A DNA stretch of 64,000 bases, taken from NCBI GenBank assembly GCA_964502145.1, contig CAZCVI010000002.1:117383-181382 (forward strand), in the 5' to 3' direction. Positions 22,382 to 56,200 of this stretch are shown piece by piece (within the stretch, counting starts at the first letter, position 1; every line of letters starts with the position of its first letter). A program made the position numbers and the translations under genes. The notes under the pieces were generated by a model, which made no database searches, was not told where the DNA came from, and worked only from the letters and a program-made list of their open reading frames with translations. This DNA comes from an uncultured Clostridia bacterium (GTDB lineage: Bacteria > Acidobacteriota > Aminicenantia > UBA2199).

Positions 22382-22633
22382 TTATTTAATTTTTTTCCTT
22401 TCCGCATTGTTTTTTAATGCATTGGCAATAATCCATTCTTGCTTTTGTTGATTGGCATCTTCAATGGTTCGGTACTTAAAAACTCCGTGAGGAAAATTCG
22501 GAGGACAAAGACGATTGGCTAAATCCCAGAGTTTAACTACCTGTTTATAGTATTCTTCGTCGGGGTCAAAGCACCAGAGGGCTCTTTCAGCCTCTTGAAA
22601 ATCTTTAAACTTTTGAATTGCCATTTGGGTCAT
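22382..22633 (-). CDS. Hypothetical 83-aa protein (possibly the C-terminal part of the upstream NTase-like gene, separated by a frameshift)
   Basis: MTQMAIQKFKDFQEAERALWCFDPDEEYY...GVFKYRTIEDANQQ. It overlaps the upstream ORF by 29 nt in another frame. A G5 run (C5 on + strand at 22634-22638) sits at the junction. Confidence 0.5.
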   Translation of the reverse strand: MTQMAIQKFKDFQEAERALWCFDPDEEYYKQVVKLWDLANRLCPPNFPHGVFKYRTIEDANQQKQEWIIANALKNNAERKKIK

Positions 22634-23099
22634 CCCCCTTTTGTCTCATAAGCTCATATAAAAAGAAGGCATCCCTTTTATCTTCAGATCGAAGAGTATC
22701 TTTTTTTAGTTTGAAAAGAGTCTGCGCTGTGGCCACATTTATTGGAATTTCATCAAAAGTCATAATCTCATATTCCAGATCATCATATGTCGCAAACTCT
22801 CCTAATCTGGCCATAATATCTATATAAAACCCATCTGGAGCGCCATATCGAATTACTGAATACTGATTTAATTCCTCAAAGGTAATATCAAAGATACATT
22901 CATCTTGAAAAACGTCATCTAGTGCTTTTTGAAGCTTCTTGATATTTTCGGAATTCATTTTTACAAATATATCAATATCCTGAGTAAGACGAGGTAAACC
23001 ATGGAGAATAACTGCAAATCCTCCGATTAGGATGTAGTCCACCTTTTCTTTACCTAGAGCTTTAAGTACTTTCAAAAATTTCTCGAATAATTCTGTCAT
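22605..23099 (-). CDS. Nucleotidyltransferase-fold protein (MNT/AbiEii-like small NTase)
   Basis: KVDYILIGGFAVILHGLPRLTQDIDIFV shows the G-x-x-A...hG..R.T.DiD pattern of minimal nucleotidyltransferases. Confidence 0.55.
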   Translation of the reverse strand: MTELFEKFLKVLKALGKEKVDYILIGGFAVILHGLPRLTQDIDIFVKMNSENIKKLQKALDDVFQDECIFDITFEELNQYSVIRYGAPDGFYIDIMARLGEFATYDDLEYEIMTFDEIPINVATAQTLFKLKKDTLRSEDKRDAFFLYELMRQKGDDPNGNSKV

Positions 23100-23204
23100 C
23101 TTTATTATCCTTATAGAAGATTTATAACAGATAAGAAATGAAAAATCAATCCCCAGCTTCCCAAGGTTGACCGCTGGTGGTAAAAAAATTATTTTTAATC
23201 CATT

Positions 23205-25769
23205 TTAATCCACGGTAATTGACTTGCTGACGTTTTTGGGGACGTCGGGGTGGACGCCGTGGTTTTCCACGTGGCATTTGTTGAGGTATTTCATCTTGGT
23301 CACGGACATTTTCATGGCCAATAATTGTAATACCAGTGCAGCCACAAAAACGAAAATCTGGCGGTCGCCGGTTTTGGGTAGTTCGATATATTGGGAGTAG
23401 TATTTTTCAAAACCCGAGGGTTTGCCTGCCACTGCTTTTCTTAGTTCGTCGTCGTCCTCGGCAATCAGGATGATGTCGGCGCCACGTATTTTATGGGTGT
23501 GAATCTGGGTGATCGTGATGCGTTTGTCCCGTTCATCTGGCGGGCATAAAAAGATCAACGGGTAAGTGGAGAAATAGGATTCCACAGAAATGGTATTGCG
23601 ATAATCTTCCAGTATTTCGCGGAGGCGTAATTTATCGTTGCCGTTAGCGTGGGCCAGGGAGTCCAGCGGTACCTGGTCATCCAAACGCTGCAATTTGAAA
23701 CTCTTGGCGATATTGAGAAATTCATAGATGGCTGGTCGGCTGGAAGGGTCCATTTCCAAATATTGCATGATTTTTTCAAAGGATTCCAACATATCGGTAT
23801 GCAGGTGTTCCATATCGCGGAGCGAGAAAATAGTATTTTTACCCAGGATCGTATTGGGCCCATGTTTGAATTCTGCCGCGTCATATCCTTCCGTGTGGTT
23901 GAGTACTACTTCCCTGATCTTTAGTGCCCCCTCTTTGGAAAGCCCTTCCATGGAGGTGCCCAGAATATGCAGGGAGGGTCTTAAGAATATCTTTAATGCC
24001 AGAGTGCTGATTTCATGGTCGGTGTGGGCCAGAGTAAAGTCCATATAATACTTGATTTTGGCCATTTTTTTGCAAACCGTGGCCTCATTTTCTTTAATAC
24101 TGGCGGCCAAGATATAAAACAGGGCGATCTGGCTGATAAAAGATTTGGTAGCAGCCACGGCGATTTCTGGACCGCACATGACGGGCAGGTAAAAATCCGA
24201 TTTCTCTTGTGGCAGGGTGGAATTCTCATTGTTGACAATGGAGAAAAGCAAAATTTTTTTATCGTACATTTTGCGGATATCATTGAAGATGTCTACGAGG
24301 TCCTTGGTTTCACCGGATTGACTGACGCCAATTACCATATCTTTCTCGGACAGTGATTGGAGGTAAAGTGAACGGAACATGCCGGGTATGGCAGGAATAA
24401 TGGGAATACTGGCCATGGTGTTAAAAAAATACCCGCCTACCAGCGCGGCGTGGGCAGAAGTGCCGGAAGCAACAACAAAAATTCGGCTACCGTTGGTAGC
24501 AATCTTTTTAAAGAAGTCGATCACCTGGTTTTTGAAACGAATGATCATCCGTTTCTTTTTCCAGATGAGCATCAGGTCCAGAATAAACAGTTCGGGGAAG
24601 TAACTTTCATTGATGCCCAGTATCTCGTTTAATAGGGCCGCTTCTTCTGAAGTAAAACCATGGGATTGAAAGCGTTTGCGGATATGGTGGTTGTTTTTGA
24701 AGATGTCAGCGGACACGGTTTTGAACGTTTCGCTGGCCAGGATGGTTTCGAATTCTGTTTTCAGGCGGGGCAGATCGAAAATGTCGTAGAGTTTCAGCAG
24801 AGTGTAGAGCAGTTCGCGACAACTGTCCAATTTATTTTCGAAGACCTCGAAAAAGGGTTTTTCTTCTTCATCGTTAAAGTAGTATTTGACCAATTGATCG
24901 ATATTCTGGGAGGCGGTGAAAATTTCTTGTTCCATGAAGTAGTGGTATTTGGGGGCGAGGGCGATATCGGAGATATTGAGGCGGCTACGGGTGAGGGCCG
25001 GGGTAAATTCCTGGTTGTCGGTCAGCCCGAAGACGCGGTAGGAGGTGCTGGTGAAGTACATGCCCTGACCTTCGGTCAGAGGGATGAGGAACCGGGTTTT
25101 AGCGAGTATAGAGGTAAGGTCAGAACTGACCACGATAAATTCACCTCCGGCATCCTGGCCTTTGCCCGCGTAGAGCGAGGAACCCGATTTAATGGCAAAT
25201 ATGCCGGTAATATCCGGGGCGGTAATGCAAGCGGCATAGGAACCATCGGCCATTTCGCCAGCTTTACGGATGGCTTGCATGAATAGGTTGACGCGTTCTT
25301 TTTCGCTGGTGTTTTTGCCAGGAGAATCGGCGATTAAGCGGGCATAGAAGTGTTCTATCAGGTGTACGAGCATTTCGCCGTCGTTATCTGACACGACTTG
25401 GTGTCCGGTTTCGAGTAAGAACTCTTTGAGGGAATCGGTATTGGAGAGGTTGCCGTTATGGCCGCCCACGAGGTGGGTTTTGCAATTAACGTCGTGGGGT
25501 TGGGCGTTTTCGTCGGTGACGGAGCCGTAGGTAGCCCAGCGTACTTGGCCGATGAAGCGAATACCGGACATTTTGTCCATTTCCAGGTCGATGGTGACGC
25601 GGGAGGGGGCGCCGACTTTTTTCTTTAATTGGATGGTGCCGTCTTTTTTAATGAATGCACCGCCGGTGGAATCATAGCCCCGGTACTCTAATTTTTTCAA
25701 TAAAAAAACACCCTCATTGCCGAGGTTTTCATTGTGTTTACCATATATAATCGAAACTATTCCGCACAT
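23205..25769 (-). CDS. GlmS-like glutamine amidotransferase (class II) with two SIS domains, atypically long (854 aa)
   Basis: N-terminal MCGIVSIIYG (catalytic Cys2). The sequence KYHYFMEQEIFTASQ is the GlmS-like YxHxMxKEIxEQP equivalent. SIS motifs VVASGTSAHAA and GVSQSGETKD. C-terminus ...NVSKSITVD resembles the GlmS C-tail. Extra segments lie between the GATase and SIS1 domains and within the SIS region. Confidence 0.7.
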   Translation of the reverse strand: MCGIVSIIYGKHNENLGNEGVFLLKKLEYRGYDSTGGAFIKKDGTIQLKKKVGAPSRVTIDLEMDKMSGIRFIGQVRWATYGSVTDENAQPHDVNCKTHLVGGHNGNLSNTDSLKEFLLETGHQVVSDNDGEMLVHLIEHFYARLIADSPGKNTSEKERVNLFMQAIRKAGEMADGSYAACITAPDITGIFAIKSGSSLYAGKGQDAGGEFIVVSSDLTSILAKTRFLIPLTEGQGMYFTSTSYRVFGLTDNQEFTPALTRSRLNISDIALAPKYHYFMEQEIFTASQNIDQLVKYYFNDEEEKPFFEVFENKLDSCRELLYTLLKLYDIFDLPRLKTEFETILASETFKTVSADIFKNNHHIRKRFQSHGFTSEEAALLNEILGINESYFPELFILDLMLIWKKKRMIIRFKNQVIDFFKKIATNGSRIFVVASGTSAHAALVGGYFFNTMASIPIIPAIPGMFRSLYLQSLSEKDMVIGVSQSGETKDLVDIFNDIRKMYDKKILLFSIVNNENSTLPQEKSDFYLPVMCGPEIAVAATKSFISQIALFYILAASIKENEATVCKKMAKIKYYMDFTLAHTDHEISTLALKIFLRPSLHILGTSMEGLSKEGALKIREVVLNHTEGYDAAEFKHGPNTILGKNTIFSLRDMEHLHTDMLESFEKIMQYLEMDPSSRPAIYEFLNIAKSFKLQRLDDQVPLDSLAHANGNDKLRLREILEDYRNTISVESYFSTYPLIFLCPPDERDKRITITQIHTHKIRGADIILIAEDDDELRKAVAGKPSGFEKYYSQYIELPKTGDRQIFVFVAALVLQLLAMKMSVTKMKYLNKCHVENHGVHPDVPKNVSKSITVD

Positions 25770-25866
25770 GTGAATCTCCTTTTTTACTGTGAAAGTATTA
25801 TTGTACCAGTAAATGATGTTATTGAAAAGAGTTATTCTTAAAAGAGTACTTACTGGATATACGGTA

Positions 25867-26961
25867 CTATCTGGGTAAATTTAGCGTGAATGACATTTCT
25901 GCCAGTTCTTCGCCATTGATGATGATGGAAATCTTATGCTGGCCGGGGTAGTGTTTGCGGGTGGAGTAGTCTTGGAAGGAGTGTTTGCGTTTGAAGGGGT
26001 GAGTGCCGGGTAGGTAGGTGTTTTCGGTGATTTTGAAGACTTTTTTGGATAATTTGCCATTGGCTTTCATAAAATAGAGGCCGTATTCAAGGCGGACGTT
26101 ACTTTCTGTTTTTTCTGTTAGGATTAGATCGAAGGAGAAGGTGAGGGGTTCGCCGATGGCGAGGATTTCTTGATCCAGTTTGAGGTTTTCCACGTTCATT
26201 TGGGTGGTAGTGCCGAAGCCGAAGAATTTCATGGCTCGTTTATTGCCCGCTTTCATCATGGAGCGACAGGCGTGTTTGATGATGGCGTCGGTGTTTTTAT
26301 TATGGCCGTACCATTTTTCACTGATATCTAAGAGCAGTTCGGGGTTATCTTTGGAGATATCGTTGAGGTTATTGGCGACACTGCGACGTACATCTTCGGA
26401 GGGGTCATTTTTTAATTTTTCCAAGATGGGTAGGATTGGGGCGGGATCTTTCTTGAATTTGGGTAAAGCCATCGCCCAGGGGAGCCGTGGTCGGCAGCCT
26501 TCGCTGGCGAGGCGGCGCACACGGGGATTCTCATTGGTGGCAAAAGCCAACATGTAACCCAGTGCTTTCTTGGGGTCGCGATCTAAAAATGGGCGGACGG
26601 CAAATTCGGAAGAGGAATAACCGGTGAATACTTCAAGCGCTTGAAAAGACAGGTCCCACTCTTCTTCCATGCCGTACAGTTCCACAAAATCGGGTAATGA
26701 CATGGCTTCAAAGCCTTTTACATAAGGTGCGGCTTCTTTTAGAATTGCGACTGCTTGCATGTAGGATGGGGGGAGGGTGTGGTGTAAGCATTGGGTGGTG
26801 TGGCGCATTTTTGCTTTTAATTCCAACGCTTCCCAGCCGGGATAGTGGATCAGTTCAAGAAACCGCTCCTTATCAAATGGGGGGTAGAACCGTTTCATAA
26901 TATCTGCCATTGCATTCATAGAATCTTGGGTGAAAAAGATTTTCTTTAATTGTTCAGCCAT
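25867..26961 (-). CDS. DNA alkylation repair protein, HEAT-like repeat family (AlkC/AlkD-like) with C-terminal beta-domain
   Basis: ATG at 26961 with an AAGGAG RBS. NPRVRRLASEGCRPRLPWAMALPKFKKDPAPILPILEKLKNDPSEDVRRSVANNLNDISKDNPELLL is the typical pfam08713-type pattern. The ~100-aa C-terminal extension is reminiscent of the AlkC Ig-like domain. Confidence 0.7.
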   Translation of the reverse strand: MAEQLKKIFFTQDSMNAMADIMKRFYPPFDKERFLELIHYPGWEALELKAKMRHTTQCLHHTLPPSYMQAVAILKEAAPYVKGFEAMSLPDFVELYGMEEEWDLSFQALEVFTGYSSSEFAVRPFLDRDPKKALGYMLAFATNENPRVRRLASEGCRPRLPWAMALPKFKKDPAPILPILEKLKNDPSEDVRRSVANNLNDISKDNPELLLDISEKWYGHNKNTDAIIKHACRSMMKAGNKRAMKFFGFGTTTQMNVENLKLDQEILAIGEPLTFSFDLILTEKTESNVRLEYGLYFMKANGKLSKKVFKITENTYLPGTHPFKRKHSFQDYSTRKHYPGQHKISIIINGEELAEMSFTLNLPR

Positions 26962-27011
26962 ATTTAAAAACTCCTTTTTTTTAATCTGTATCATCATTTT
27001 AATCTGTGTAA

Positions 27012-27665
27012 TCAGTGGACTTTTTTTTCAATCTTTTTTGTATGTTTTCCTTGGCATGAGGATTTAAGCAGACAATGGCGGCAATCCGGTGTTTGGGGTT
27101 TGCAGATTTTATGGGTGAAATCGAGGATGGCAAAGAGGAACGTACCGGGTTCTTTGGTGTTGAAGAGTTCTTTGGCCAAGTGGATGATTTGTTTTTTACG
27201 GGGGATGTCGCCGGTTAGGTTTAGGCCGTGGTAACGATTAATGAAGCGGGCGATGTTGCTGTCTATGGCGTGTTCGGGTTTGTTGAAGCAGATGGACAGA
27301 ATAGCGCCGGCAGTGTAGTGGCCAATACCGGGGATTTTTAATAAATCGCGGCGGATGTCGGGGAATTCACCGTCGAATTGTTCCACCACATATTGGGCGG
27401 CTTCGATGAGCTGGGTACTGCGGCAGTGGAGACCGAGATGTTCGGTAACGCTTTTGATTTCGGTTTCGTTAGCATAGGCGAGGGCTTCGACCACGGGGTA
27501 TTTTTGGATGAAGGCTTGGTAAATAGTAGCGGCTTGTTCAGCACGGGTGCGGCGTAACAGGAATTCGGCAATCATGATGAAATAGGGGTTACTATAATTC
27601 CGCCAGGGGAACTCTCTTCTGTGTTTGGCAAACCAGTTGAATATTTTACGATGCATGTTAATCAT
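27012..27665 (-). CDS. HhH-GPD base-excision DNA glycosylase with 4Fe-4S cluster loop (MutY/Nth-like, short form)
   Basis: FPWRNYSNPYFIMIAEFLLRRTRAEQA...LLKIPGIGHYTAGAILSI (HhH-GPD). C-terminal Cys cluster CKPQTPDCRHCLLKSSC. Confidence 0.75.
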   Translation of the reverse strand: MINMHRKIFNWFAKHRREFPWRNYSNPYFIMIAEFLLRRTRAEQAATIYQAFIQKYPVVEALAYANETEIKSVTEHLGLHCRSTQLIEAAQYVVEQFDGEFPDIRRDLLKIPGIGHYTAGAILSICFNKPEHAIDSNIARFINRYHGLNLTGDIPRKKQIIHLAKELFNTKEPGTFLFAILDFTHKICKPQTPDCRHCLLKSSCQGKHTKKIEKKVH

Positions 27666-27843
27666 AGAAATAGGGTTCGCTGCTGCTTTTTTGGGTTATC
27701 ATGCGAGTATTTTAAAGGAAAGCAGCCAAAAAAGCAAGGGAATTAATAATTCTGGATTTACCTTCTATTTGTTTTCCTCTTGACTTTACGGGGAATTATC
27801 TTTATAGTTTCTTTTGATAAATAATTTTAATGAAGGATATGAC

Positions 27844-29202
27844 ATGCCTGAAACAAATAATGAACCAAGATTCACGTGCGATTGGATTTTTAATATACTG
27901 GTGGTCTTAAGCGACGGGAAAGTGGTGTGCGGGTGCGCGGACCCTTATGGTCAGAGACCTCTGGGCCATTTACAGGAAAAGGGAATCTACGAGATTTGGA
28001 ATTCTGAGCCAGTGAAACAAATCCGCCGGGATTTGAACGCGGGACATGCCGATTTCTGCGGTCCCTGCGGTTTGAAACGGTTCCTCAAAGAAAACGAAAC
28101 GCTACCACAAGCACCGGAACACCTGGACGTATTACCCCGACTATTTTTGGAACCGACGGTGTTATGCAACCTGAACTGCTTCAAAGCGGTGTGCAGCAAA
28201 GAAGCGGATATCTTAAAATCGCGCACACGGACTATTTTTCCGGTTGAAGAATTTAAAAGTCTTTTAGATCAAGTGTGGGAGAAACTGATCCGCTTGGATT
28301 TTTTTAACTACGGCGACCCTTTTGTTCATCCACAAGCGGCGGAAATGATGGCTTATATTAAAGAAAAATACAGGCATATCTATCTGTATGTGAGTACGAA
28401 CGGATTGATGCTGGATGAAGAGAAAATAAAAATTCTGGCGGCTTCGGGGGTGGATGAGATTACATTTTCGGTGGATGGGGTAGATCAGGAATCGTATGGT
28501 CACTACCGACAGGGCGGGGATTTTAATAAAGTGCTGGGGCTGATGGCCAAAATGGTAGCGGAGCGAAATAAAATAGGTCGCGAAGTGCCTTTTATTAACT
28601 GGCGTTATATTCTGTTTAATTGGAACGATTCCGTTGCGCAGATGAAACGGGCGAAAAAACTGGCGGCCAAAATCGGCGTCGATCGTTTTACCTGGGAAAT
28701 CACGGATCACCCAGTAGAAGGGAAATCGGAAAAATACCAGATCGGCACGGAGGCATGGAAAAAGATATATTATGAAATCTGGGATACGAGCCAAATTGGC
28801 AACGTGGTGAAAAAGAATCGTTTCATGGCAAAAATAAAGGTCTTGTCTGGACGGGTGGATATGGCGGTTGGGGGTGACGCTGTGAATGTCCGGGTGCAAG
28901 TGAAAAACAAGGGGGGCGCACTGTGGCGGAAAGTAACGTGGTCGGGTCGTAGACTGGTTCGCCTGGGCGCACAATGGTATGACAGGGATAAAAAACTGCT
29001 GGACCTGAATTATGCACGGGTGTTTTTAAATAAAGACTTGGGTTATCGGAAAAAAGATATCTTAACGATCACGTTACCGCCATTATCGCAACCTGGGGAG
29101 TATTTTCTGAAGTTTGATATGGTTTCGGAGGGCAATGATTGGTTTGAAAACGGGGGCTCGCCAGTGGTGTGGGTGCCGTTTAGGGTTTATGCGGGGGGGT
29201 AA
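27844..29202 (+). CDS. Radical SAM protein with N-terminal SPASM/twitch-like Cys-rich domain and C-terminal Ig-like domain
   Basis: ATG at 27844 (AAGGA 6 nt upstream) is preferred over the TTG at 27814. The N-terminus (CDWIFNILVVLSDGKVVCGC...LGHLQEKGIYEIWNS...CGPCGLK) looks like a SPASM/twitch domain. The core has CNLNCFKAVC (nt 28165-28194, Cx3Cx4C), YGDPFV, STNGLML and FSVDG. The C-terminal ~130 aa is beta-sandwich-like. Confidence 0.65.
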   Translation: MPETNNEPRFTCDWIFNILVVLSDGKVVCGCADPYGQRPLGHLQEKGIYEIWNSEPVKQIRRDLNAGHADFCGPCGLKRFLKENETLPQAPEHLDVLPRLFLEPTVLCNLNCFKAVCSKEADILKSRTRTIFPVEEFKSLLDQVWEKLIRLDFFNYGDPFVHPQAAEMMAYIKEKYRHIYLYVSTNGLMLDEEKIKILAASGVDEITFSVDGVDQESYGHYRQGGDFNKVLGLMAKMVAERNKIGREVPFINWRYILFNWNDSVAQMKRAKKLAAKIGVDRFTWEITDHPVEGKSEKYQIGTEAWKKIYYEIWDTSQIGNVVKKNRFMAKIKVLSGRVDMAVGGDAVNVRVQVKNKGGALWRKVTWSGRRLVRLGAQWYDRDKKLLDLNYARVFLNKDLGYRKKDILTITLPPLSQPGEYFLKFDMVSEGNDWFENGGSPVVWVPFRVYAGG

Positions 29203-29254
29203 TGGGAGGAATGGGAAGTATGGGAATTATGGGAGTTATGGGAAGAATGGGATA
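29201..29254 (+). repeat. 9-bp tandem repeat, 6 units ([A/T]ATGGGA[A/G]N), starting at the stop codon of the rSAM gene
   Basis: aatgggagg aatgggaag tatgggaat tatgggagt tatgggaag aatgggata. The reverse complements (cctcccatt, attcccata, actcccata...) are the same units found in-frame at 39832-39885 and 54091-54153. Confidence 0.95.
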
Positions 29255-29356
29255 TTTAGAACTATTTCTGAAAACACTGAATTTTATTAAAATAAGCTTG
29301 TAAGATTTTTAAATATTTTATATGATATCAGGGTAAATAATGAATTGGAGGTTGTT

Positions 29357-30148
29357 ATGGATTTAAAAATTAAAGGAAAAGTGGCGGTAGTCACGGCTTG
29401 CAGTAAGGGGTTGGGTTTTGCTGTGGCTGAAGCTCTGGCTGCAGAAGGGGTGAACCTGGCGATTTGTTCGCGGAATAAAGAAAAAATCGCGGAAGTGGCC
29501 GATTACCTGCGTGCGATGTATGAAGTAGACGTGCTGCACGATGTCTGCGATGTGACGGATAATGAGGGTATTGTGGCTTTTAAAGAGAAGGTGATCGAGC
29601 GTTTTAAAACCTGCGATATTCTGTTTACGAATGCGGGCGGCCCGAAACCAGGGAAAATTGAGGATTTTACAGGCGCGGATTTTAAAAAAGCCATTGATTT
29701 GAATCTGATGAGCACGATTAATTTGATATATGCTTTTTTGCCTTATATGAAACAACAAAAGTGGGGCCGGATCTTGGCTTTGACTTCTATCTCGGTGAAA
29801 CAACCAATTCCAACGCTGGTGCTTTCCAATGTATCGCGGGCTGGGGTGGTGGCGTTTATCAAGAGTTTGGCCCGGGAAGTGGCACCCCTTAATATCACGG
29901 CCAATACAATCGCCCCGGGGTACTTGATGACGGAACGGGTGAAAGACCTCCTGGAAGTGAAAGCAAAAAACGAGGGGATTACCTACGAACAAGCCAGAAC
30001 GGGAACAATTGAACTGATCCCGGTACATAAAATCGGGGCACCCCAGGACCTGGGGGCATTATGCGCCTTCCTGGCCTCGGAACATGCTTCCTATATCACG
30101 GGGGGAACACATCTGATTGACGGGGGAATGTATGGTGGTTTGATGTGA
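29357..30148 (+). CDS. Short-chain dehydrogenase/reductase (SDR, FabG-like)
   Basis: ATG at 29357 with GGAGG at 29347-29351. GKVAVVTACSKGLGFAVAEALAAEG is the TGxxxGxG-like cofactor motif. NAGG is present, along with a Ser...Y/K-type region and C-terminal ITGGTHLIDGG. Confidence 0.8.
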   Translation: MDLKIKGKVAVVTACSKGLGFAVAEALAAEGVNLAICSRNKEKIAEVADYLRAMYEVDVLHDVCDVTDNEGIVAFKEKVIERFKTCDILFTNAGGPKPGKIEDFTGADFKKAIDLNLMSTINLIYAFLPYMKQQKWGRILALTSISVKQPIPTLVLSNVSRAGVVAFIKSLAREVAPLNITANTIAPGYLMTERVKDLLEVKAKNEGITYEQARTGTIELIPVHKIGAPQDLGALCAFLASEHASYITGGTHLIDGGMYGGLM

Positions 30149-30152
30149 CAAC

Positions 30153-30224
30153 AGCGGGCAACGGGGCTCGAACCCGTAGCATCCAGCTTGGGAAGCTGAT
30201 ACTCTACCATTGAGTTATGCCCGC
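30153..30224 (-). tRNA. tRNA-Gly (anticodon CCC)
   Basis: The reverse complement reads GCGGGCATAACTCAATGGTAGAGTATCAGCTTCCCAAGCTGGATGCTACGGGTTCGAGCCCCGTTGCCCGCT. It has a 7-bp acceptor stem GCGGGCA/TGCCCGC, anticodon stem TCAGC/GCTGG with loop TTCCCAA, T-arm GGGTTCGAGCCCC, and discriminator U. CCA is not encoded. Confidence 0.9.
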
Positions 30225-30561
30225 ACTGTTGAAAAATAGTATTTTATAAAAAAAATCATTGAAATGCAATAGGTTCGCGCATTTTTTTTGCATTTTATTT
30301 TTTTAGAAAGGGTCTGCAAGAATAGATAGTGAAGGGAAGTGATTGTAGGGATGGTTCAAAATGGGTGTATAAAAAAAAGGCAGGCTGACGAATGAACCAT
30401 CGACTCATGTATTTCAAACGTCAGTCTGCATTTAACGGACTTTTATGTCGGTGTTACACTAACACCATGTTTTCATACCATATATTATATATAAAAATGG
30501 CGAATTTTCAATTTATTTTTTTTAATATATAATGTAAGAAAACTGTGAAGTACTTGAATAC

Positions 30562-31173
30562 TTAGATGACACCTGCCTTTTTGAGGTATGCGATGACGGT
30601 TTCCACTTCTTGGTCAATGGTGTGGGTATCGGCGTCAAGTATGATCTCGGCGCGTAATGGTTCTTCGTAAGGGGCGGAAATACCGGTAAACTCTTTGATC
30701 TCGCCATTCTTGGCTTTTTTATACAGTCCTTTGGGGTCTCGTTGTTCGCAGGTATCTATGGACGCTTTGACATAAATTTCGATAAAGCGACCAGCCCCGA
30801 GGAGTTCTCTGCCAAAATCGCGGTCTTTGCGATAAGGGGAAATAAAGGCGGTGGTGGTAATGACGCCCGCATCGGCGAACAGGTTACCTACTTCTGCAAT
30901 ACGACGGATATTCTCTTCGCGATCAGCGGGGGAAAAACCGAGGTTCTTGTTGAGACCGTGACGGATATTGTCGCCATCCAGTACATAGGTTAATTTACCG
31001 ATTTGATGCAGCCGGGCAGTCACCTCGTTGGCAATAGTGGATTTGCCACTGGCGGAAAGTCCGGTAAACCATAATAATACGCCTTTTTGTTTGAGAAGGG
31101 CTTCACGCTCTTCACGACTTACTTTGTGCTCGTGCCAAGTGATGTGGGTGGCTTTCTGAAAATTGCTATTCAT
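30562..31173 (-). CDS. cysC: Adenylylsulfate (APS) kinase
   Basis: [21 protein letters not shown] (P-loop), [33 protein letters not shown] and FISPYRKDR are canonical CysC motifs. Confidence 0.9.
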
Positions 31174-31310
31174 TGCTGTACTTATCCTCCAAAGGGTGAT
31201 GTTGTGTTTTCTTTTTTGTTTTCTTTTTATTATTATTTTATTTTAAACAATAAAAGGTAACGATAGCAAATTATTGGCATAAATGCAAGGAATTTGTGCG
31301 GAAAAAAATG

Positions 31311-31346
31311 TGGACGATATGGACAGTATGGACGATATGGACGATG
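31311..31346 (+). repeat. 9-bp tandem repeat, 4 units (TGGACGATA family)
   Basis: tggacgata tggacagta tggacgata tggacgatg. The same family occurs in inverse orientation at 37776-37811. Confidence 0.9.
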
Positions 31347-31358
31347 GGGATGGTGAAT

Positions 31359-32006
31359 TTATTCTAGAGAGGGGGATTTGACTTTGAGAGAGAGGGTGTT
31401 TTTCTGGTCGATCATCATTAATTCGAGGTTTAGAACTTTGGCAATATAATGGAAGGTTTTGGGGGTGAAGAAGGAGATGTGGGTGGCATCGCGGCGATAC
31501 CACCACTGGAAGAATTGTGCAGCCACGGGAGTTTGCAGGGGATGGAATAGGGTCATAATGGCCAATATGCCACCGGGATTGAGCAATTCTTTTAATAAGG
31601 TGAGTGTCTCAAAGGGATTTTTGAGATGTTCCAGTACCTCGGTACAGGTGATGAGATCATAGGTGTGCCCAAAATATATTTTTTCCGGGGCAAAGTAGGG
31701 GTCATAGACGTGTACGTCGTATCCTCTTTTTTTTAAGAGTGAGGCCAACACAGGGCCAGGACCGCTACCGAAATCAAGGGCGGTTTGGATGTGGGGGTGG
31801 AAAGGGTGAATGCTTTTTGCTATGAACTGTTCTAACATGGACACGTATCCACATTCTTCGACAGTATTTATATGTTGGAGATATCTTTGCCGTTCTTGTT
31901 CGGGAGGAAGTATTTTTGACTCTGCAATGGCAATAAAATAGCACTTGGGGCAGAAATAGTAATAAAGGATAGGGCACAACGGCCCGGCACAAATTTTACA
32001 GCCCAT
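31359..32006 (-). CDS. Class I SAM-dependent methyltransferase with N-terminal Cys-rich (zinc-ribbon-like) segment
   Basis: CKICAGPLC...CPKC at the N-terminus. LDFGSGPGPVLASLL is SAM-binding motif I, followed by DLITCTEVLEHL. Confidence 0.7.
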   Translation of the reverse strand: MGCKICAGPLCPILYYYFCPKCYFIAIAESKILPPEQERQRYLQHINTVEECGYVSMLEQFIAKSIHPFHPHIQTALDFGSGPGPVLASLLKKRGYDVHVYDPYFAPEKIYFGHTYDLITCTEVLEHLKNPFETLTLLKELLNPGGILAIMTLFHPLQTPVAAQFFQWWYRRDATHISFFTPKTFHYIAKVLNLELMMIDQKNTLSLKVKSPSLE

Positions 32007-32019
32007 CAGGGGGAATTTA

Positions 32020-32490
32020 TTACTCCTTTATAAAGGGTGGAAGTTCTTTATAACTCTTCTGGGTCAGAAAGAGACTGCTGTCATAGTAATATTTATCCGC
32101 TTCTTTAACGAGAATGATGACAAAAATTTCACCACCGACTTTTTTCACCATGCCAGCCATTCCGTCTTTACCTTCAAAGGTAGTCATCAGGCGGAACTCA
32201 GTGACGTCAATGATGTCCTTGGCATTGGCCTTGTATTTGGTAAAAATGCGATCCATATCGGCTGGGTTCTGGGAGATTATGGCTTGGTATTCACTCCGTT
32301 TTTCTTCGGGCATTAGCGCGATGATGGTGGTATAGTCACTGGTTTGGAGTGCTAAAAGGATTGCCTTGGTCACGGCATTGGGATCGGCTTGATCCACTTC
32401 GGCAGCCTGTAAAAGAGAATAAAAACCGTAAAATCCCAACGCCAAGAAGCATACAATATAAATACATCGGCTGGTTGCTTTAAGCATCAA
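32020..32490 (-). CDS. Hypothetical exported protein (156 aa)
   Basis: N-terminal signal-like hydrophobic segment CIYIVCFLALGFYGFYSLLQAAEV. No recognisable family. Confidence 0.55.
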   Translation of the reverse strand: MMLKATSRCIYIVCFLALGFYGFYSLLQAAEVDQADPNAVTKAILLALQTSDYTTIIALMPEEKRSEYQAIISQNPADMDRIFTKYKANAKDIIDVTEFRLMTTFEGKDGMAGMVKKVGGEIFVIILVKEADKYYYDSSLFLTQKSYKELPPFIKE

Positions 32491-32685
32491 ATCCTCCTAA
32501 AAGCTTTTATTCTTCATCTTCCACTGTTCTTGGCTTTCTCCTGCGATACTAACCGATTTTATAATATTATATCATACCAGCTTATTAAAAAAAAAACAAG
32601 TAGAAAAACAGCCTAAATTCACTGCCGTGTTAAAAAAAATTATGGTTTCGAGATTATGGCAGTGAATTTAGGCAGTAGAAAGTAT

Positions 32686-34866
32686 TTATTTGATATTCAT
32701 TTCGGTTATGAGGTGTCCGGCGCCAGCGAATTTATCGAGGAACCAGAGAATATACCGAATATCAACGCCGATGGAACGACTGTATTTTTCATCCCAGCCA
32801 AAATCGTTGATCGTGGCTTCATACACGCGGTCGAAATTAAGGCCGATCAATTGACCCCAGGCATTTAAAACGGGGCTTCCCGAATTGCCGCCGGTGGTGT
32901 CCATATTAAAAAGGATGTTAACGGGAACATCTTTTAATCCGGGATGCATAAACATACCGTATTCTTTGTTTTTGGAGAGGTTCAGCAATCGTTCGGGGGC
33001 GATATAGGGGGGCAGGCCGGTATTTTTTTCTACTACGCCGCTTAGAGTGGTAAATGGTTTGTAATACACGGCATCGGCGGGAGAATAGCCGCGAATATGA
33101 CCATAAGTTAATCGTAACGTGCTGTTGGCATCAGGAATAAAGTGGGTGCCTTTAAACTCTTTTTTGACATCGATCAATTGCGCGGATAATTCATCAAGTA
33201 TTCCTTTTTGTTGTTCCTCTTTATTTTTCTTATTTTGGAACGTCGGATAGAGCGCGGCAGCCAGTCGGAGGAAGGGATCATCGATTTGCTGTAATTCGAG
33301 GGTGCTCTTGGAGAATAAACCGATGAGGTAATCGTTTTCATAGAGCTTTGAAGTGCTGTAGGCTTTTTCTATGAAGGAATCGACAGCTTTTTCCACTTCC
33401 ACTTCAACACCTTCTTTTCTGGCCAGGATAAGTTCTTCCACGGCAGGCACGCGATAGGGGACGGGCATGGTAGCGGCTCTCATCAAGACCGCTTTTAAGA
33501 TGATTTTATCGGCTGCGGGCACATAGTTTCGTAAACCCAGGGTCATGAATTGTTTGGTGCGGTCGAAATTACGCTCCATATATTCGGATTCACGGTCGGT
33601 GTCTTTCTTTTTTAATTCGATAGAGGCTTCATATACGGTATACGCATTGGCTAACATGGCACTGCTACGATTGAAGAATTGCAGCAGGAGGTCATAATTG
33701 GCGTCCTTGCGTTTTTCGCTGTAAAGCTCTTTAAGCCGTTCCAAGACTGTGCCGTATTTTTGCTGGCGTTTGGGATCGGCATTGATAAAGGCCAACATCT
33801 CTTTTTCTTCTTGTTGTTTTTTTTCGGTCAGTTTCAGGGCTTTTAGTGCTTTTAACTGGCCTTTATAGGATTTCATGGTATTCCACAAGCCTTTCAGTTG
33901 CGGGGCCAATTTGATCTCTGTGTCACGGTCTTTTTTGCTCAGTTCTTCCAGCACGTGGATGTTCCAACTGAATAATTCGACGACGTATGGTTTGCGTATT
34001 TCTTCTTCGAAAGCGTAAAAATAGGAGGAGCGATGTCTGAAAGTCGAGCCGGGGTAGCCAAGAATAAACACGAAATCTTCTTCTTTGACTCCTTCTGGGG
34101 CCACTTGGAGGTATTTTTTAGGGTGGAAGGGGATATTTTTTTCCGAGTATTCAGCGGAGGAACCATCTGGGGCGACATAGGCTCTCATGAAGGTAAAATC
34201 GCCGGTATGTCTGGGCCACATCCAGTTATCGAGTTCGCCACCGTATTCACCGATACTACGGGGTGGGGCATACACGAGGCGGATGTCTTTTAAATAGGTA
34301 TAGATAAATAATATGTAGGTTTTACCCTGGAACATCTCGGCGACTTCGGCGCGGCGACCGGGTAATTTTTTCTCTGTGAGCACGACCATATCTTTGATTG
34401 TTTTTTCAATGGCTTTGGTACGTTCTGCATAGGTCATTTTTTTCTTGATGGCTTTTAAGATGTCTTGGGAGACATCCTGGTAGGATTCGATTAAACGAAC
34501 AGTGTATCCTTTGGCGGGTAATTCGGTGGCGCGTTCCATGGCGGTAAAACCGGTGAGCATATAATCTTTATCCTGGGTGGTGACGGATTGAATAGCGCGA
34601 AAGGCGCAATGGTAATTGGTTAGTATTAAACCCTCGGGTGACACAAAGGAGGCGGTACAGCCGCTTAAATTAATAATGCCATCAATCACGCTGACGCCAG
34701 CGGGATTGTACAGCTCCTTGGAATCGAGTTGAAAGCCAAGGACTTTGAGGTCCAGTTTACTTATTTCACTCAATGGGATCATGCCCTCTTCAGAATAAAG
34801 GGCGAGGGGTAACGAACAGCAAAGCAACAGGATTGCTGCGAATAGAATACATCTTTTTAATGTCAT
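32686..34866 (-). CDS. Peptidase family S46 (dipeptidyl-peptidase 7/11-like serine protease)
   Basis: Signal peptide. CTASFVSPEGLILTNYHCAF (catalytic His region) and TTGGNSGSPVLNAWGQLIGLNFDR (catalytic Ser). The ~720-aa length with a helical insert is typical of S46. Confidence 0.8.
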   Translation of the reverse strand: MTLKRCILFAAILLLCCSLPLALYSEEGMIPLSEISKLDLKVLGFQLDSKELYNPAGVSVIDGIINLSGCTASFVSPEGLILTNYHCAFRAIQSVTTQDKDYMLTGFTAMERATELPAKGYTVRLIESYQDVSQDILKAIKKKMTYAERTKAIEKTIKDMVVLTEKKLPGRRAEVAEMFQGKTYILFIYTYLKDIRLVYAPPRSIGEYGGELDNWMWPRHTGDFTFMRAYVAPDGSSAEYSEKNIPFHPKKYLQVAPEGVKEEDFVFILGYPGSTFRHRSSYFYAFEEEIRKPYVVELFSWNIHVLEELSKKDRDTEIKLAPQLKGLWNTMKSYKGQLKALKALKLTEKKQQEEKEMLAFINADPKRQQKYGTVLERLKELYSEKRKDANYDLLLQFFNRSSAMLANAYTVYEASIELKKKDTDRESEYMERNFDRTKQFMTLGLRNYVPAADKIILKAVLMRAATMPVPYRVPAVEELILARKEGVEVEVEKAVDSFIEKAYSTSKLYENDYLIGLFSKSTLELQQIDDPFLRLAAALYPTFQNKKNKEEQQKGILDELSAQLIDVKKEFKGTHFIPDANSTLRLTYGHIRGYSPADAVYYKPFTTLSGVVEKNTGLPPYIAPERLLNLSKNKEYGMFMHPGLKDVPVNILFNMDTTGGNSGSPVLNAWGQLIGLNFDRVYEATINDFGWDEKYSRSIGVDIRYILWFLDKFAGAGHLITEMNIK

Positions 34867-34935
34867 GGGAAATTCTCCTAATCTGTTTTGTTATTAAACG
34901 ACTAAATAAAAATTATTTTACCGGATTTGCTCGTA

Positions 34936-37242: not shown

Positions 37243-37371
37243 TGGTTTTATTATAGCAAAAATCAAATTGTTTTAGAATCATCTGGAAAAAATATAAATT
37301 CCTCTTAATTCGGAACTGTTCGGGTAAGATGATCGATGAGTACGATATTCATCGTGATTGCAGAAAACAAA

Positions 37372-37381
37372 GGGGGGGGGG
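37372..37381. repeat. Homopolymeric G10 tract in the divergent intergenic region
   Basis: The sequence reads aaaGGGGGGGGGGc. Confidence 0.9.
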
Positions 37382-37430
37382 CTTAAGTGGTGAAAATATG
37401 TTTCGTCCGTTGGGTTTTTGTAATTATTTA

Positions 37431-37550: not shown

Positions 37551-37775
37551 TAAAAAATTGCGGTTACAGGGACAATTTTTTAAAAATTCCTTGAAAATTG
37601 TAGTGGTGCGGAGAAAATTGTAGCCATGGGGACTTTTTTTTAAATATTTTTGAAAACATGCACCTACAGGTCCAATTTTGTAGGCAGGGAGTTTGTAGGC
37701 AGTGTTTACATATTTGGATGGCTATTGTAGATGCGACATCTTGTCGCATTGATAAAGGCATAAAGCAAAATAGAT

Positions 37776-37811
37776 ACGGTCCACTTAGTCCATATCGTCC
37801 ACATCGTCCAC
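37776..37811 (-). repeat. 9-bp tandem repeat, 4 units (GTGGACGAT family, inverse orientation of 31311-31346)
   Basis: The + strand reads acggtccac ttagtccat atcgtccac atcgtccac. Confidence 0.9.
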
Positions 37812-37858
37812 AACGATTTCAACAATGTGGCGGTGGATTTAGGAAAATAGTGAGGTGT

Positions 37859-38070: not shown

Positions 38071-41000
38071 ATGAGTCAATTAGAAAGAAAGAAAATTGCG
38101 GATATTCTGATGTTAACGCATTTGCAAGAAGGGATTCTATTTCACTATCTGCAAGAACCCAAAAGCGCGCAGTATTTTGAACAATTAAGCCTGGAAATCT
38201 CGGGGGAGATCAATCTGGAACTATTCAAAACCGCATGGCATACGGTCATCCAAACCAATGAGATGCTGCGCACTGTATTCCGCTGGGAAAAAATGGAGAA
38301 ACCAACCCAGATTATCTTAAAAGAACATACCTGCGACATCACTTTTTACGACCTGACAGATGAAGCGACAAACAGGCAAAAATCCCGGCTGCAAGAGATT
38401 AAAGACAAGGATAAACAAACACCCTTTGACTTGCAAGAAGTGCCCATGCGAATTATGTTGTGCAAGCTAGGGACACACGATTATGAAATGATCATCAGCA
38501 ACCACCATATCATCTATGATGGCTGGAGCAACGGGATCATTCTGAAGGAATTCTTCAGGGCATACTATGGGCTAAGCGCGGGAAAACCTGCGCTCCTCCC
38601 GGACAAACCCTCTTTCAAAGAATTTATCAAATGGCTTCAAAACGAGGATAAATACGAAAAGGATAAACAAAAAGCGTTTTGGCGCGATTATCTAGCAGGT
38701 TTAGACGGTCAGACGGAATTACCGCTAAAAAACATAAAAAATAGAAAAAACACTGGCTCCAAGCAGGTAGAACACTATTCACTGGTTCTTGAACCGGAGT
38801 TAAAAGAGAGGTTGGAGGCGTTTGCCAAAACCAAGCGGTTCACTTTGGCCGGGGTGTTCTACACTGTCTGGGGGTTATTGCTACACCAGTATTGCAACAG
38901 CCAGGATGTTCTGTTTGGCACAACTGTAGCCGGTCGTTCCGCACGGATAAAAGGCATAGAAGAGATGGTGGGGCTGTTTATCAATACGATTCCATTACGA
39001 ATCCAAACGACTCCTGGTGAAAAAATGGTGGCGGTGGTCAGCGGCGTGGATCACGCGTTACAGGCCCGTGAACTTTTTGAGAATACACCGTTGTTGGATA
39101 TCAGAAATTACAGTGGCTTGTCTGGTTATGTATCGCTGTTTGATACGTTGGTAGTGATTGAGAATTATCCATTGGATAGTCGTTTACTGCCCGAAGAAAG
39201 CGGGTTGTCAGTTCATGCTTTTACTATTGCTGAAATGACCCATTATGATTTAACCGTGGGCATTGTGCTTTTTAATGAGATAGCCGTCACGTTTTCCTAT
39301 AACCCGGAATTATTCGCCCAGGAAATGATTGCCCATTTGGCCGGGCATTTTTTGTCTCTGGTACAGATGATTATAGAAAACGGCGAACAGGACATTTGCG
39401 CCATAGAAATAATCTCCCCTGAAGAAAAGCACCGCGTATTATATGAATTTAATAATACCGCCGCAGAATACCCATCAAACAAAACGATTCCCCAATTATT
39501 CATGGAACAATCCGCCCGGACCCCAGACTACATCGCCCTTATCTGGGAAAAAAGCGGGGCGTGCCATATATCCTATGCCGAATTAAATGAACTATCCAAC
39601 CGTCTGGCCTATTGGTTGCAAACAGAAGGCATTAGGCCCGATACTATCGTGGCTATAATGGTAAATCGTTCCATTGAAATGATTGTGGGCCTCATGGGTA
39701 TTTTAAAAGCCGGTGCCGCCTATTTACCGATTAACCCGGAATACCCGGCTGAACGAATTCAATTTATGCTGCAAGACAGCACCGCAAAAATCGTGCTCAC
39801 CGAACCAATCATCCAAGCAACCACTTCCCATATTCCCATTCCTCCCATAATTCCCATAATTCCCATTCCTCCCATAACTCCCAGTAATTTAGCCTATGTA
39901 ATATACACTTCCGGCACCACCGGCAAACCCAAAGGCGTTTTAGTAGAACATCAAAATGCCGTTAATGTGGTGTGCTGGTTAGGGCGAAAATATCAATTAA
40001 ACCCCGATACCCATATTATCTTGATGTCCGATTATACCTTTGATGCCAGTATTGATCAAATCTTCGGTGCCTTGTTGCATGGTGCCTCTCTTTATATCGC
40101 CAGTAAAGAGTTCATGTTGGATATGGATGCTTTACGCCATTACATCAATAAAAATCGGATCAATTTTATTAATTTTGTGCCGCTAGTGCTCAATGAATTG
40201 CTGGGCTATCGGGAGAAATTGCCCAGCTTAAACACCGTGATTTCCGGTGCAGAGCGGTTGGACGATACTATCAAAGATAATATCCTGAAGCGCGGCTATC
40301 ATTTATATAATCATTATGGTCCCACAGAAACCACGGTGGAGACACTGGTCTTCACTTGTACAGACGCTCCAGTTTACCTGGGGAAACCCATAGCCAATAC
40401 AAAAATTTATATACTTGATCAATGGGAACATATCGTTCCAATCGGCGTACCTGGAGAATTGTATATTGCCGGGGCCGGATTGGCCAGGGGGTATTTGAAC
40501 CGGTCCGATTTAACGGCGGAGAAATTCGTGGCCACACCCCATGGTGTAGAGAATGACCCTGTATCTCGAACCTATCGAACCGGGGACCTGGGGTGTTGGC
40601 TGCCCGATGGAAATATTGCGTTTCTGGGACGCATTGATCAGCAGGTTAAGATCCGGGGGTTCCGTGTTGAACTGGGAGAAATCGAAGCACAATTGCGCAC
40701 TTTCCCGGAAATAAAGCAGGTCGTGGTGAGCGCAAAAGAAGATAACCGTGGTGATAAAACGCTTTGTGCCTATATTGTATCCCGGCAGCTTTCTACAGGC
40801 CCCACTGCCCCCCTTGACCCAGCCGTGCTAACCACCTATTTAGCCGGTATCTTACCCGATTACATGATTCCCGCCTATTATGTCCAGTTGGCAGAAATTC
40901 CCCTGTTGCCCAATGGCAAAGTGGACCGCAAGAACTTGCCTGAGCCTGTTTTTATTGCCACCCAAGCATACCAGGAACCACGGCATGAACTGGATCGCAG

Positions 41001-53200: not shown

Positions 53201-56200
53201 CCCATGCGGACCTGGGCCGGATTATCGGCATGTTTGTCAATACCCTGGCCATGAAGAATGAACCCAATGGCCAAAAAACTATCCAGGAATTTTTAAAGGA
53301 AGTCAAAGAAAACACCTTGAGTGCTTTTGCCAACCAGAACTACCAGTATGAAGAACTGGTCGAGCACCTGCCCATAGATCGCAGTCTAGGCCATAACCCC
53401 TTGTTTGACACCCTGTTGGTCTTGCAAAACATGGCTCTGCCCAATATCAATATTCCCGAATTGACCTTAACACCCTATCCGTATCATACCGGTTTGGTAA
53501 ATTTTGATTTGACTTTCCTGTGTGTTGAAACCCCAGCTACCCTCTCGTTCACCCTTGAATACAGTACAGAACTCTTTAAAAAAGAAACCGCCCAACGCTT
53601 TATCGGTTTTTTCAAAAAGATATTAACCACCGTATTGGCGCACCCCGAAGGAAAAATATCCCAGATCGAGATAATATCCCAGCCAGAAAAAACCCAGATT
53701 TTATATGATTTCAACAACACCACCGTTACATACCCGGCCAACCAAACCCTTCCCCAATTATTTTCCGACCAAGCCGCACGAACCCCAGACCATATCGCCA
53801 TTATTGGTCCCACCCTGGCTCTAACCCACTGCCAATTAACCTACTCCCAATTAAACGAAGCATCCAATCGCCTCGCCCATTGGTTACTTTCCACTGGCGT
53901 CCGTCCCAATACCATCGTCGCCATCATGATCGAACGTTCCATTGAATTGATCATCGGCATTATCGGCATATTAGAATCCGGTGCCGCCTATCTTCCCATC
54001 GATCCCCAATACCCCGAGGAGCGAAAACAATATATACTAGCAGACAGCAATACAACCCTCATCCTAACCCAACACTCCATCCAACAAGCCATTCCCATCA
54101 CTCCCATCACTCCCAACACTCCCATAATTCCCATACTTCCCATCACTCCCATAAATCTCGCCTATATCATCTACACTTCCGGTTCCACCGGCAGACCCAA
54201 GGGCGTCATGGTAGACCATCACAGCATCGCCAACACCTTGTATTACCGCTGCCAGGAATATCGTATCGTGCCCAGTGATCGTGTACTCCAATTGTTTTCC
54301 TTTGCTTTTGATGGATTTCTCACCTCTTGTTTTACCCCCCTGCTTTCTGGCGCATCTGTCGTGCAGTTAAGCCAGGAGGACATAAAAGATATCTTCCGTA
54401 TCAAAGAGATGATTGTCGCCCAACGAATCACCCACTTTATCGCTGTCCCGTCCCTGTACCGCTCTTTATTGGAAGTCGCCACTGCCCTTGAGTTATCCCA
54501 CCTAAAAATCGTAACCCTTGCCGGTGAGCAGGTGCCCCCCGACCTCGTGGTAAAAAGTAAGTCTTTAAACCCCTTGTTGGAATTGGTCAATGAGTACGGT
54601 CCCACCGAGAGCAGTGTCCTGACCTCCATACACAGAAACCTCGAACCCGGTGCCATTATTTCCATCGGTAAACCCATAGCCAATACCCGGATTTATATTC
54701 TTGATCAAGATGATCATGTTGCCCCCATCGGGTTACCCGGTCAACTCGTTATATCTGGTCTTGGTTTGGCCCGCGGGTATCTCAATAATCCCCAACTCAC
54801 CGCCGCTACATTTTTCTCTTTAGCCCATTCAGCCACCTTCGCCACCCTCTCACCAAAACTCTATAAGAGCGGTGATTTGGCCCGCTGGTTGCCAGATGGA
54901 AACATAGAGTTCCTCGGTCGCATTGATCAGCAGGTTAAAATCCGTGGCTTCCGTATTGAATTGGGCGAGATCGAAAACCAACTGCTTCGCCATCCCCAGA
55001 TCAAAGAGGCAGTAGTGGATGTTAGAACCGAAAACAGCGGCGATCACTATTTATGCGCTTATATTGTCACCCAGGGCGAATGGGACATCTCCCAGGCAAG
55101 AGAATATCTGGCCAAGACCTTACCCGATTACATGATTCCCGCGCATTTTGTCGCCTTGGAGAAAATCCCCTTGTCCCCCACTGGCAAGATTCTACGTTCA
55201 GCCTTACCCCAACCGCAATTAAAAAGCGCGGCCCAGTACGTGCCCCCCCGCAATGACATAGAACAACAATTGGTAGAGATATGGACCGAGATTTTGGGCA
55301 GTGATCCATTGTTTGCCTCTTTTTTACATCCCTCTATAGGCATTGATGATAACTTTTTCCATCTCGGTGGGCACTCCTTAAAAGCCATGACCATGGTCAC
55401 CAAGCTCCATAAAGCCCTAAATGTTAAAGTGCCCTTGGTGGAAGTCTTTAAAACCTTGACCATCAGGAAACTGGCCGCCTATATTTTAGGTTTAAAAAAA
55501 GAGTTATACACCGCCATCCAACCCGCTGAAACCAGAGAGTATTATGACTTATCCTCTGCCCAGCGCCGGTTTTATATCTTGCAGCAAATGGAGCTGGACA
55601 GTTTTGCCTACAACAATTTTTCCGTCATGGTTTTGGACGGATTATTTGATAAAGAGAAATTTGGCCACGCGTTAAACCAATTGATCGCCAGACATGACAG
55701 TTTAAGAACCTCTTTTGAATTAATCGGAGGTGAACCTTTCCAAAAGATACATCAACAAGTAGTCGCGGAAATCGCTTATTTTGATTTCACCCCTCCCGGA
55801 AAAAGTCAGCTCTTAGAATCCACCATCCAACATTTTAACCGTCCTTTTGATTTATCTCATGCCCCCTTGCTCAGGTTCGGCATTATTCTCGTGGAGCAGC
55901 AAAAATCCTTGTTGCTGTTAAGCCTCCACCATATCATCAGTGACGGCACATCCATCGGCACCTTTATGAACGAGTTAATTTATTTATACCTGGGCCGAGA
56001 ACTCCCACCCCTGCGATTGCAATATCACGATTTCTCCCAGTGGCAAAAAAACCTCCTGGTTTCCGGGGCATTAAAGACCCAGGAAGAATACTGGTTAAAA
56101 GTTTTTGCCGGGGAACTGCCCGTTCTTGAAATGCCCACCGATTACCCCAGACCAGCCGTGCAAAGTTTTGCCGGTCACAGTATCGATTTCTTTCTGGAGG

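Follow-up and report, generated by a model that had tools for sequence, protein, structure and literature searches.

The 64,000-nucleotide stretch analysed here (the window; positions 117,383 to 181,382 of contig CAZCVI010000002.1 in assembly GCA_964502145.1, from a member of the Aminicenantia within the Acidobacteriota) carries a gene for a radical S-adenosylmethionine (SAM) enzyme, the stop codon of which runs directly into a tandem array of nine-nucleotide units. The open reading frame (ORF) of the enzyme extends from the ATG at 27844 to the TAA at 29200-29202, the position given in the preliminary description, and encodes 452 residues rather than the 453 counted there. The array occupies part of the spacer between this gene and a short-chain dehydrogenase/reductase (SDR) gene. 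It had been proposed, speculatively, to encode a substrate of the enzyme, namely a repeat-type precursor of a peptide that is made on the ribosome and modified after translation (RiPP). The coordinates of all features are collected in Table 1.

A Pfam scan of the whole protein places PF13186 (SPASM) at residues 12-75, with 36.7 bits against a cutoff of 21.5 and an E value of 5e-9, and PF04055 (Radical_SAM) at residues 103-237, with 48.9 bits against a cutoff of 29.5. The isolated N-terminal domain scores 40 bits with PF13186. The auxiliary-cluster domain therefore stands at the N-terminus, unlike the usual C-terminal SPASM domain, and the permuted order suggested in the preliminary description is borne out. 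The cluster motif, which had been described as non-canonical, is preserved as CNxxCxxxxC in all 65 full-length orthologs that were translated from fetched loci, and CX3CX2C is found in none of them. Variant cluster motifs are known in the radical SAM superfamily, so a protein without the canonical CX3CX2C is still compatible with membership. The cysteine triad of the CX3CX4C motif would bind the [4Fe-4S] cluster that cleaves SAM.

The AlphaFold2 model, which was made from the family alignment, is confident, with a pLDDT of 86.3 and a pTM of 0.80. The nearest structures to its core in a Foldseek search are BlsE, NifB, SuiB, viperin, MoaA, and anSME, with E values from 1e-9 to 1e-6, and these matches, together with the pLDDT, point to a partial TIM-barrel core in the predicted structure. 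The C-terminal part of the model is rich in β-strands (329-333 to 442-449) and contains one short helix (433-437), which is consistent with the Ig-like sandwich that had been suspected to end the protein. A Pfam scan of this domain by itself returns no family. The domain probably helps in substrate binding.

Of the cysteines in the N-terminal domain, only five never vary (C12, C29, C31, C72, and C75). A full SPASM domain has seven or eight cysteines and two auxiliary clusters, whereas a twitch domain has about four and a single cluster. Because five invariant cysteines suffice for one auxiliary cluster, a twitch-like domain with one cluster is a better fit to the sequence than a full SPASM domain with two. 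A profile built from 25 members of the family supports the comparison with BtrN (2-deoxy-scyllo-inosamine dehydrogenase, PDB 4M7T): residues 5-73 align with the C-terminal twitch domain of BtrN (185-256), with an E value of 3e-9 over the entire chain and of 2e-4 when the twitch stretch is taken by itself, and the core of the profile matches BlsE, NifB, and others. The auxiliary domain is C-terminal in BtrN and in the twitch/SPASM radical SAM enzymes with a similar core fold (BlsE, anSME, and SuiB), and these enzymes carry CX3CX2C, in contrast to the N-terminal domain and CX3CX4C motif of the present enzyme. The first cluster ligand of BtrN lies at the end of its core; here, this ligand would be replaced from elsewhere, by C29 or C31. 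Four of the five invariant cysteines of the circularly permuted twitch-like domain would ligate one auxiliary [4Fe-4S] cluster.

The permuted order has a precedent in the NCBIfam family NF033640 (N_Twi_rSAM, "twitch domain-containing radical SAM protein"), in which the N-terminal twitch architecture is already curated. The first 99 residues of the enzyme, searched alone, match this model best (residues 10-75 on profile positions 3-69 of 398), and core residues 135-290 align with positions 160-313, collinear with the N-terminal match. All other radical SAM/SPASM models align the N-terminal domain only to their own C-terminal parts. The enzyme is nevertheless not a member of NF033640, as its 47.6 bits fall well short of the cutoff of 170, and it has an additional C-terminal β domain of approximately 120 residues; CX3CX4C, conserved in the enzyme family, is a putative further difference. 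What sets the enzyme apart as a variant is its score below this cutoff, the conserved CX3CX4C, and the additional domain. Nothing on an N-terminal SPASM domain, CX3CX4C, or NF033640 was found in the open-access literature, an absence that is weak evidence.

The enzyme belongs to a large family. More than 2000 database proteins are homologous to it, the top 120 being full length with 58-81% identity, and the few source names given point to Aminicenantes and Acidobacteria. A further search yields 245 matches in species-representative genomes of Aminicenantes and Vicinamibacteria (approximately 45% identity in the latter), 80 of which were kept for the comparison of loci. In the neighbour comparison of ortholog loci, no gene is kept beside the enzyme across clades, the best reaching approximately 18 of 82 loci, and the analysis of conserved neighbours yields no partner for the enzyme that is common to all clades. 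The closest relatives have either patatin and SDR genes or MFS and MotA genes as neighbours. One Aminicenantes clade has the order dnaX-recR-(roadblock-like)-...-radical SAM gene with a convergent aminotransferase gene, and in Vicinamibacteria an extracytoplasmic function (ECF) sigma factor gene and lysA lie near the gene. As these neighbourhoods are of a housekeeping kind and are not conserved, the substrate, judging from them, is not a dedicated precursor peptide encoded next to the enzyme.

The six ATGGGANNN units of the array begin at a TAATG overlap, in which the A that ends the stop codon of the enzyme is also the A of an ATG. Six exact ATGGGA cores recur at a spacing of 9 nucleotides, and a search of the window for three consecutive units, with no more than two mismatches allowed, gives 13 matches, where shuffled sequences lead one to expect 0.01. 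The ATG opens a 33-residue ORF, as noted in the preliminary description, although 18 rather than 16 of its residues are encoded by the six units. Past the TAA, the frame of the enzyme reads WEEWEVWELWELWEEWDI (W-E-X) before it is closed by a TAG, and the third frame reads NGRNGKYGNYGSYGKNGI (N-G-X), both in agreement with the earlier account. An in-frame stop is possible only in the variable triplet; that every frame is open is therefore mostly a consequence of how the unit is built, and this openness, the 33-residue ORF, and the W-E-X reading carry no weight as evidence of coding. Gene callers also place a 32-residue "gene" over an ATGGAC array. The window is identical to the JGI contig Ga0207193_1000010 and to two European Nucleotide Archive (ENA) assemblies, and all three contain the same six units. 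The contigs of two further independent assemblies end inside the array, as is expected for dispersed repeat DNA, and no divergent strain is present among the assemblies.

Among periods of 6 to 12, period 9 alone gives arrays of at least four exact 5-mer cores, and the window contains five of them. Three consist of ATGGGANNN units (starting at 29202 on the plus strand and at 39826 and 54093 on the minus strand) and two of ATGGACNNN units (31307, plus; 37779, minus), both of which have the core (A/G)TGGAC followed by a variable triplet. Three of the five are intergenic, and two lie in-frame in a nonribosomal peptide synthetase (NRPS) gene, where they read (X-P-I)6-7 in place of the loop that immediately precedes the A3 motif LAYxxYTSG; two of the adenylation domains are affected, out of three found by this motif. 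In the third (approximately 47905), the loop is ordinary and similar in length. The array at 29202 matches that at 39826 in 39 of 42 nucleotides (93%) and that at 54093 in 26 of 26, and a 24-mer that includes two of the "variable" triplets is identical between 29211-29234 (+) and 54120-54143 (-). The identical 24-mer and the 39/42 match suggest that sequence was copied from one array to another, as opposed to slippage at each array separately. The 101-nucleotide non-repeat flank of the array at 29202 occurs only once in the window. The evidence favours the simpler alternative that had been set beside the RiPP proposal, that the tract is another copy of the nonamer microsatellite of the window, the same nonamer being present in unrelated contexts.

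In the locus of the closest ortholog (L086; 81% identity), the same SDR gene follows the radical SAM gene, and the 63-nucleotide spacer between them contains neither a repeat nor a small ORF; its likeness to the spacer of the window is recognisable only in the promoter-proximal part. No repeat follows the gene in L087/L088 (77% ortholog) or in L001, L003, and L004 (69-73%). The downstream repeat ORF is thus not conserved among homologs, contrary to what a precursor role had been expected to entail. In many of the 80 other genome loci, short arrays are present in the spacer after the radical SAM gene, and their units are unrelated and of at least eight types (CCCTNNN, CTTCAACN, TTCGAAG, CGTAACG, GGTGCCAAG, GTGCACANN, and others). 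The period is 7 or 8 in 11 of the 14 arrays detected by Tandem Repeats Finder (TRF) in the spacers after orthologs, and at such a period a triplet-repeat peptide cannot be encoded; period, unit, and frame are accordingly not conserved. None of the 35 ortholog tails that could be delimited ends in (Wxx)n. Over the 891 kb of loci, 30 strict arrays are found, with period 7 the commonest, followed by 8 and 9, and arrays are approximately 10 times denser outside than inside ORFs.

Arrays of this general kind are widespread in related genomes. Loci L011-L033, L045, L060, L063, L066, and L069-L074 (Acidobacteriota, Aminicenantes) contain many intergenic arrays, each with a conserved core of 4-6 nucleotides and 2-3 variable bases. 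Where the radical SAM ortholog is followed by a convergent aminotransferase gene in one clade, an array is almost always present in the spacer, with units that differ by sub-clade. In L071, inverted octamer arrays lie directly 5' of the radical SAM gene, and L060 has octamer arrays at the equivalent position, the units of which are related and complementary to each other.

Short repeat arrays are also known from the short tandemly repeated repetitive (STRR) heptamers of cyanobacteria and from Borg elements, which have in-frame or intergenic tandem repeats. The likeness extends to head-to-tail units of 7-9 nucleotides at many loci, mostly intergenic, to the tolerance of multiple-of-3 units in genes, and to lineage-specific arrays with fast turnover. 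The copies in those systems are near-identical, whereas an invariant hexamer is combined here with a fully variable triplet. No described repeat family with an ATGGGA+NNN unit was found in the searchable open-access literature, including that on tandem repeats of Aminicenantes. A metagenome-wide scan for (ATGGGANNN)x4 is uninformative on the source organism: among the matches listed, the contigs range from 23 to 72% GC, and many of the matches are in unrelated coding repeats.

Table 1. Features of the radical SAM locus and of the nonamer arrays in the window (aa, amino acids)
Feature	Position	Strand	Remarks
TTGACT-17-TATAGT promoter-like site 5' of the radical SAM gene	27780..27808	+	Consensus match only, 10/12
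Radical SAM gene, 452 aa and TAA stop	27844..29202	+	Large orphan Acidobacteriota/Aminicenantes family
SPASM/twitch-like auxiliary Fe-S domain, N-terminal, aa 12-75	27877..28068	+	PF13186, BtrN, and NF033640 matches; invariant Cys
Radical SAM core by Pfam, aa 103-237	28150..28554	+	Partial TIM barrel, extending in the model to near aa 320
CNLNCFKAVC, CX3CX4C cluster motif (C108, C112, C117)	28165..28194	+	65/65 orthologs
C-terminal β-rich (Ig-like) domain, aa 329-449	28828..29190	+	AlphaFold2 model; no Pfam family
Nonamer array, six ATGGGA+NNN units (GGA, AGT, ATT, GTT, AGA, TAT)	29202..29255	+	Judged a non-coding microsatellite
33-aa ORF MGGMGS...KISL opened by the array	29202..29303	+	Mechanical gene-finder call, without evidence of a gene
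TTGTAA-17-TATGAT promoter-like site before the SDR gene	29298..29326	+	43 nt past the array; consensus match only
SDR gene	29357..30148	+	3' neighbour, common only to the closest ortholog locus (L086)
Sister array ATGGACNNN	31307..31345	+	Intergenic, methyltransferase / APS kinase genes
Sister array (A/G)TGGACNNN	37779..37812	-	Spacer upstream of the NRPS gene
ATGGGANNN nonamer in NRPS adenylation domain 1	39826..39889	-	In-frame; plus strand ...IPIPPIIPIIPIPPITP... right before LAYVIYTSGTTG
ATGGGANNN nonamer in NRPS adenylation domain 3	54093..54152	-	In-frame; plus strand IPITPITPNTPIIPILPITPI right before NLAYIIYTSGSTG

In light of these results, we consider that a functional, stand-alone orphan radical SAM enzyme and an unrelated, lineage-specific, non-coding nonamer microsatellite lie side by side at this locus (probability approximately 0.85). 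The indifference of the unit to strand and frame, its unrelated contexts, and its absence from the syntenic site of L086 argue for a repeat at the DNA level. The array would have been born in the spacer between the radical SAM and SDR genes by slippage or by ectopic copying between arrays, once this lineage and its nearest sequenced relative had separated, and the 33-residue ORF and the W-E-X reading would be by-products of a 9-nucleotide unit that contains an ATG. Several observations weigh against this reading. The TAATG overlap would permit termination-reinitiation, and the 33-residue ORF is called by gene callers; the periodicity of W-x-x is reminiscent of the aromatic-X-X motifs found in triceptides (PMC11499958); only the triplet varies among the units, next to a hexamer without a single change, which simple slippage with neutral decay does not obviously predict. 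Additionally, arrays are approximately 3-fold denser 3' of radical SAM orthologs (14 in 5.5 kb) than in the rest of the non-ORF DNA at those loci (26 in 32.7 kb), with a naive Poisson P of 2e-4 for loci that are phylogenetically non-independent.

Under the RiPP proposal, translation of the array yields either the product of the coupled 33-residue (M-G-X)6 ORF or, by read-through, a (W-E-X)6 extension of the enzyme, and this product is then cross-linked by the enzyme. The position of the array directly beside the gene, with the TAATG overlap, is in its favour, as is the SPASM-type auxiliary domain. Triceptide (three-residue cyclophane) synthases likewise combine a radical SAM core with a SPASM-type domain and act on aromatic-X-X motifs repeated in dedicated precursors, and the enzyme frame of the tract can be read in the same manner (PMC11499958, PMC11851443). 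The present enzyme, however, differs from these synthases in that it falls below the cutoff of every RiPP-maturase family and lacks a RiPP recognition element (RRE): no PqqD/RRE domain is found in it by Pfam scan at E <= 1, and the RiPP-maturase models all score far under their cutoffs (WgkB, the best, 31.9 of 650 bits, AlbA 31.3 of 850, and PqqE 26.3 of 381). Neither frame suits a precursor, as the M-G-X frame has no leader and no aromatic residue before the final Y, and the aromatic W-E-X frame is closed by the stop codon of the enzyme and matched by no ortholog tail. TAA followed by T is the most efficient stop context in bacteria, so that read-through of this stop is disfavoured. The tract behaves as a dispersed DNA repeat, which is missing from the syntenic 81% ortholog and the other close orthologs, gives way at the corresponding site of other clades mostly to unrelated units of period 7 or 8, and is also embedded in the NRPS coding sequence on the opposite strand; the enzyme family, moreover, lies among housekeeping genes and has no small partner gene. 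The comparative sequence data have largely refuted the proposal already, and we regard it as very improbable. A variant in which a nonamer copy was newly co-opted in this one lineage, is translated by termination-reinitiation at TAATG or by read-through into (W-E-X)6, and now serves as the substrate, that is, a RiPP precursor newborn from a microsatellite, is equally improbable.

The array might instead be a cis-acting regulatory or structural element of DNA or RNA, for example a G-quadruplex or a protein-binding array that tunes read-through into the SDR gene or its promoter. That the triplet is free while the hexamer is perfect suggests that the core and its spacing are under selection, and the six GGG runs with 6-nucleotide loops (G3N6G3) fit the usual G-quadruplex pattern. 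The promoter-like site 43 nucleotides downstream, the enrichment of arrays in the spacers beside radical SAM orthologs, and the strand of the ATGG core, which in four of the five arrays agrees with the GC skew of its surroundings, would also suit such an element. Against it, the sister ATGGACNNN arrays and most arrays of relatives (TTCGAAG, CTTCAAC, and CGTAACG) have no G runs, the unit is tolerated as NRPS coding sequence, and the closest ortholog with the same gene pair has no repeat. In the spacer itself, neither an Rfam match nor a terminator-like site is found, and no stable fold is predicted (z = +1.5). A cis-acting role is therefore unlikely, albeit less so than a precursor.

Other candidates were rejected. 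A sponge for CsrA/Rsm proteins, with repeated AUGGA/GGA, is contradicted by the strand of GGA, which differs from that of the neighbouring mRNA in four of the five arrays. A Rho-utilisation site at the 29202 array is rejected because the array is G-rich on the transcript of the radical SAM gene. Separately, the C-rich, G-poor arrays 3' of the orthologs in L012 and L016-L018 are a candidate fit to such a site. A mobile element or miniature inverted-repeat transposable element (MITE) does not agree with the single-copy flank, and neither inverted repeats nor a stable fold are found.

Several further features of the window were recorded. Between the SDR and APS kinase genes there is a gene for a tRNA (30153-30224, minus strand; Rfam RF00005, 68.4 bits). 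A pair of small genes at 22382-23099 (minus strand) with weak DUF6036 and AbiEii matches is a putative toxin-antitoxin pair, adjoining the gene for a 1758-residue Ser/Thr kinase-AAA-GAF-SpoIIE protein (17061-22337). The NRPS gene is one ORF at 38071-56889 (plus strand) of approximately 6260 residues, in which the Pfam matches include Radical_SAM and B12-binding between AMP-binding domains, and the ORF may contain an in-line cobalamin-dependent radical SAM tailoring domain. From 23200 to 38070, the plus-strand GC skew is +0.04 to +0.31 in every gene regardless of orientation, and from 38071, in the NRPS genes, it changes sign (-0.10 and -0.16); possible causes are the boundary of an island, an inversion, or a switch related to replication. 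The AT-rich spacer of 800 nucleotides between the divergent HEAT-repeat and NRPS genes contains approximately 13 units of a degenerate 20-nucleotide repeat (37427-37690; TTTGTAGAATTnTCTATCTT-like), in an iteron-like or regulator-binding pattern. A replication origin in the spacer at 37.3-38.1 kb was rejected, as 17 DnaA boxes are found against 18 expected.

The main value of the analysis is its negative result: the notion of a repeat RiPP beside a permuted SPASM enzyme can be dropped. Nonamer arrays that contain ATG open all three phases automatically, and gene callers make small "genes" of them, which calls for caution in RiPP mining in repeat-rich phyla. The repeat itself is ordinary for its phylum, in which arrays of a core with a variable spacer are common, and such an array can fill a loop of an NRPS adenylation domain in-frame. 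The enzyme family, which extends from Aminicenantes to Vicinamibacteria, combines an N-terminal twitch domain, a strict CX3CX4C motif, and an additional β domain, and, as an orphan radical SAM family among housekeeping genes, is a reasonable, if not urgent, target for enzymology.

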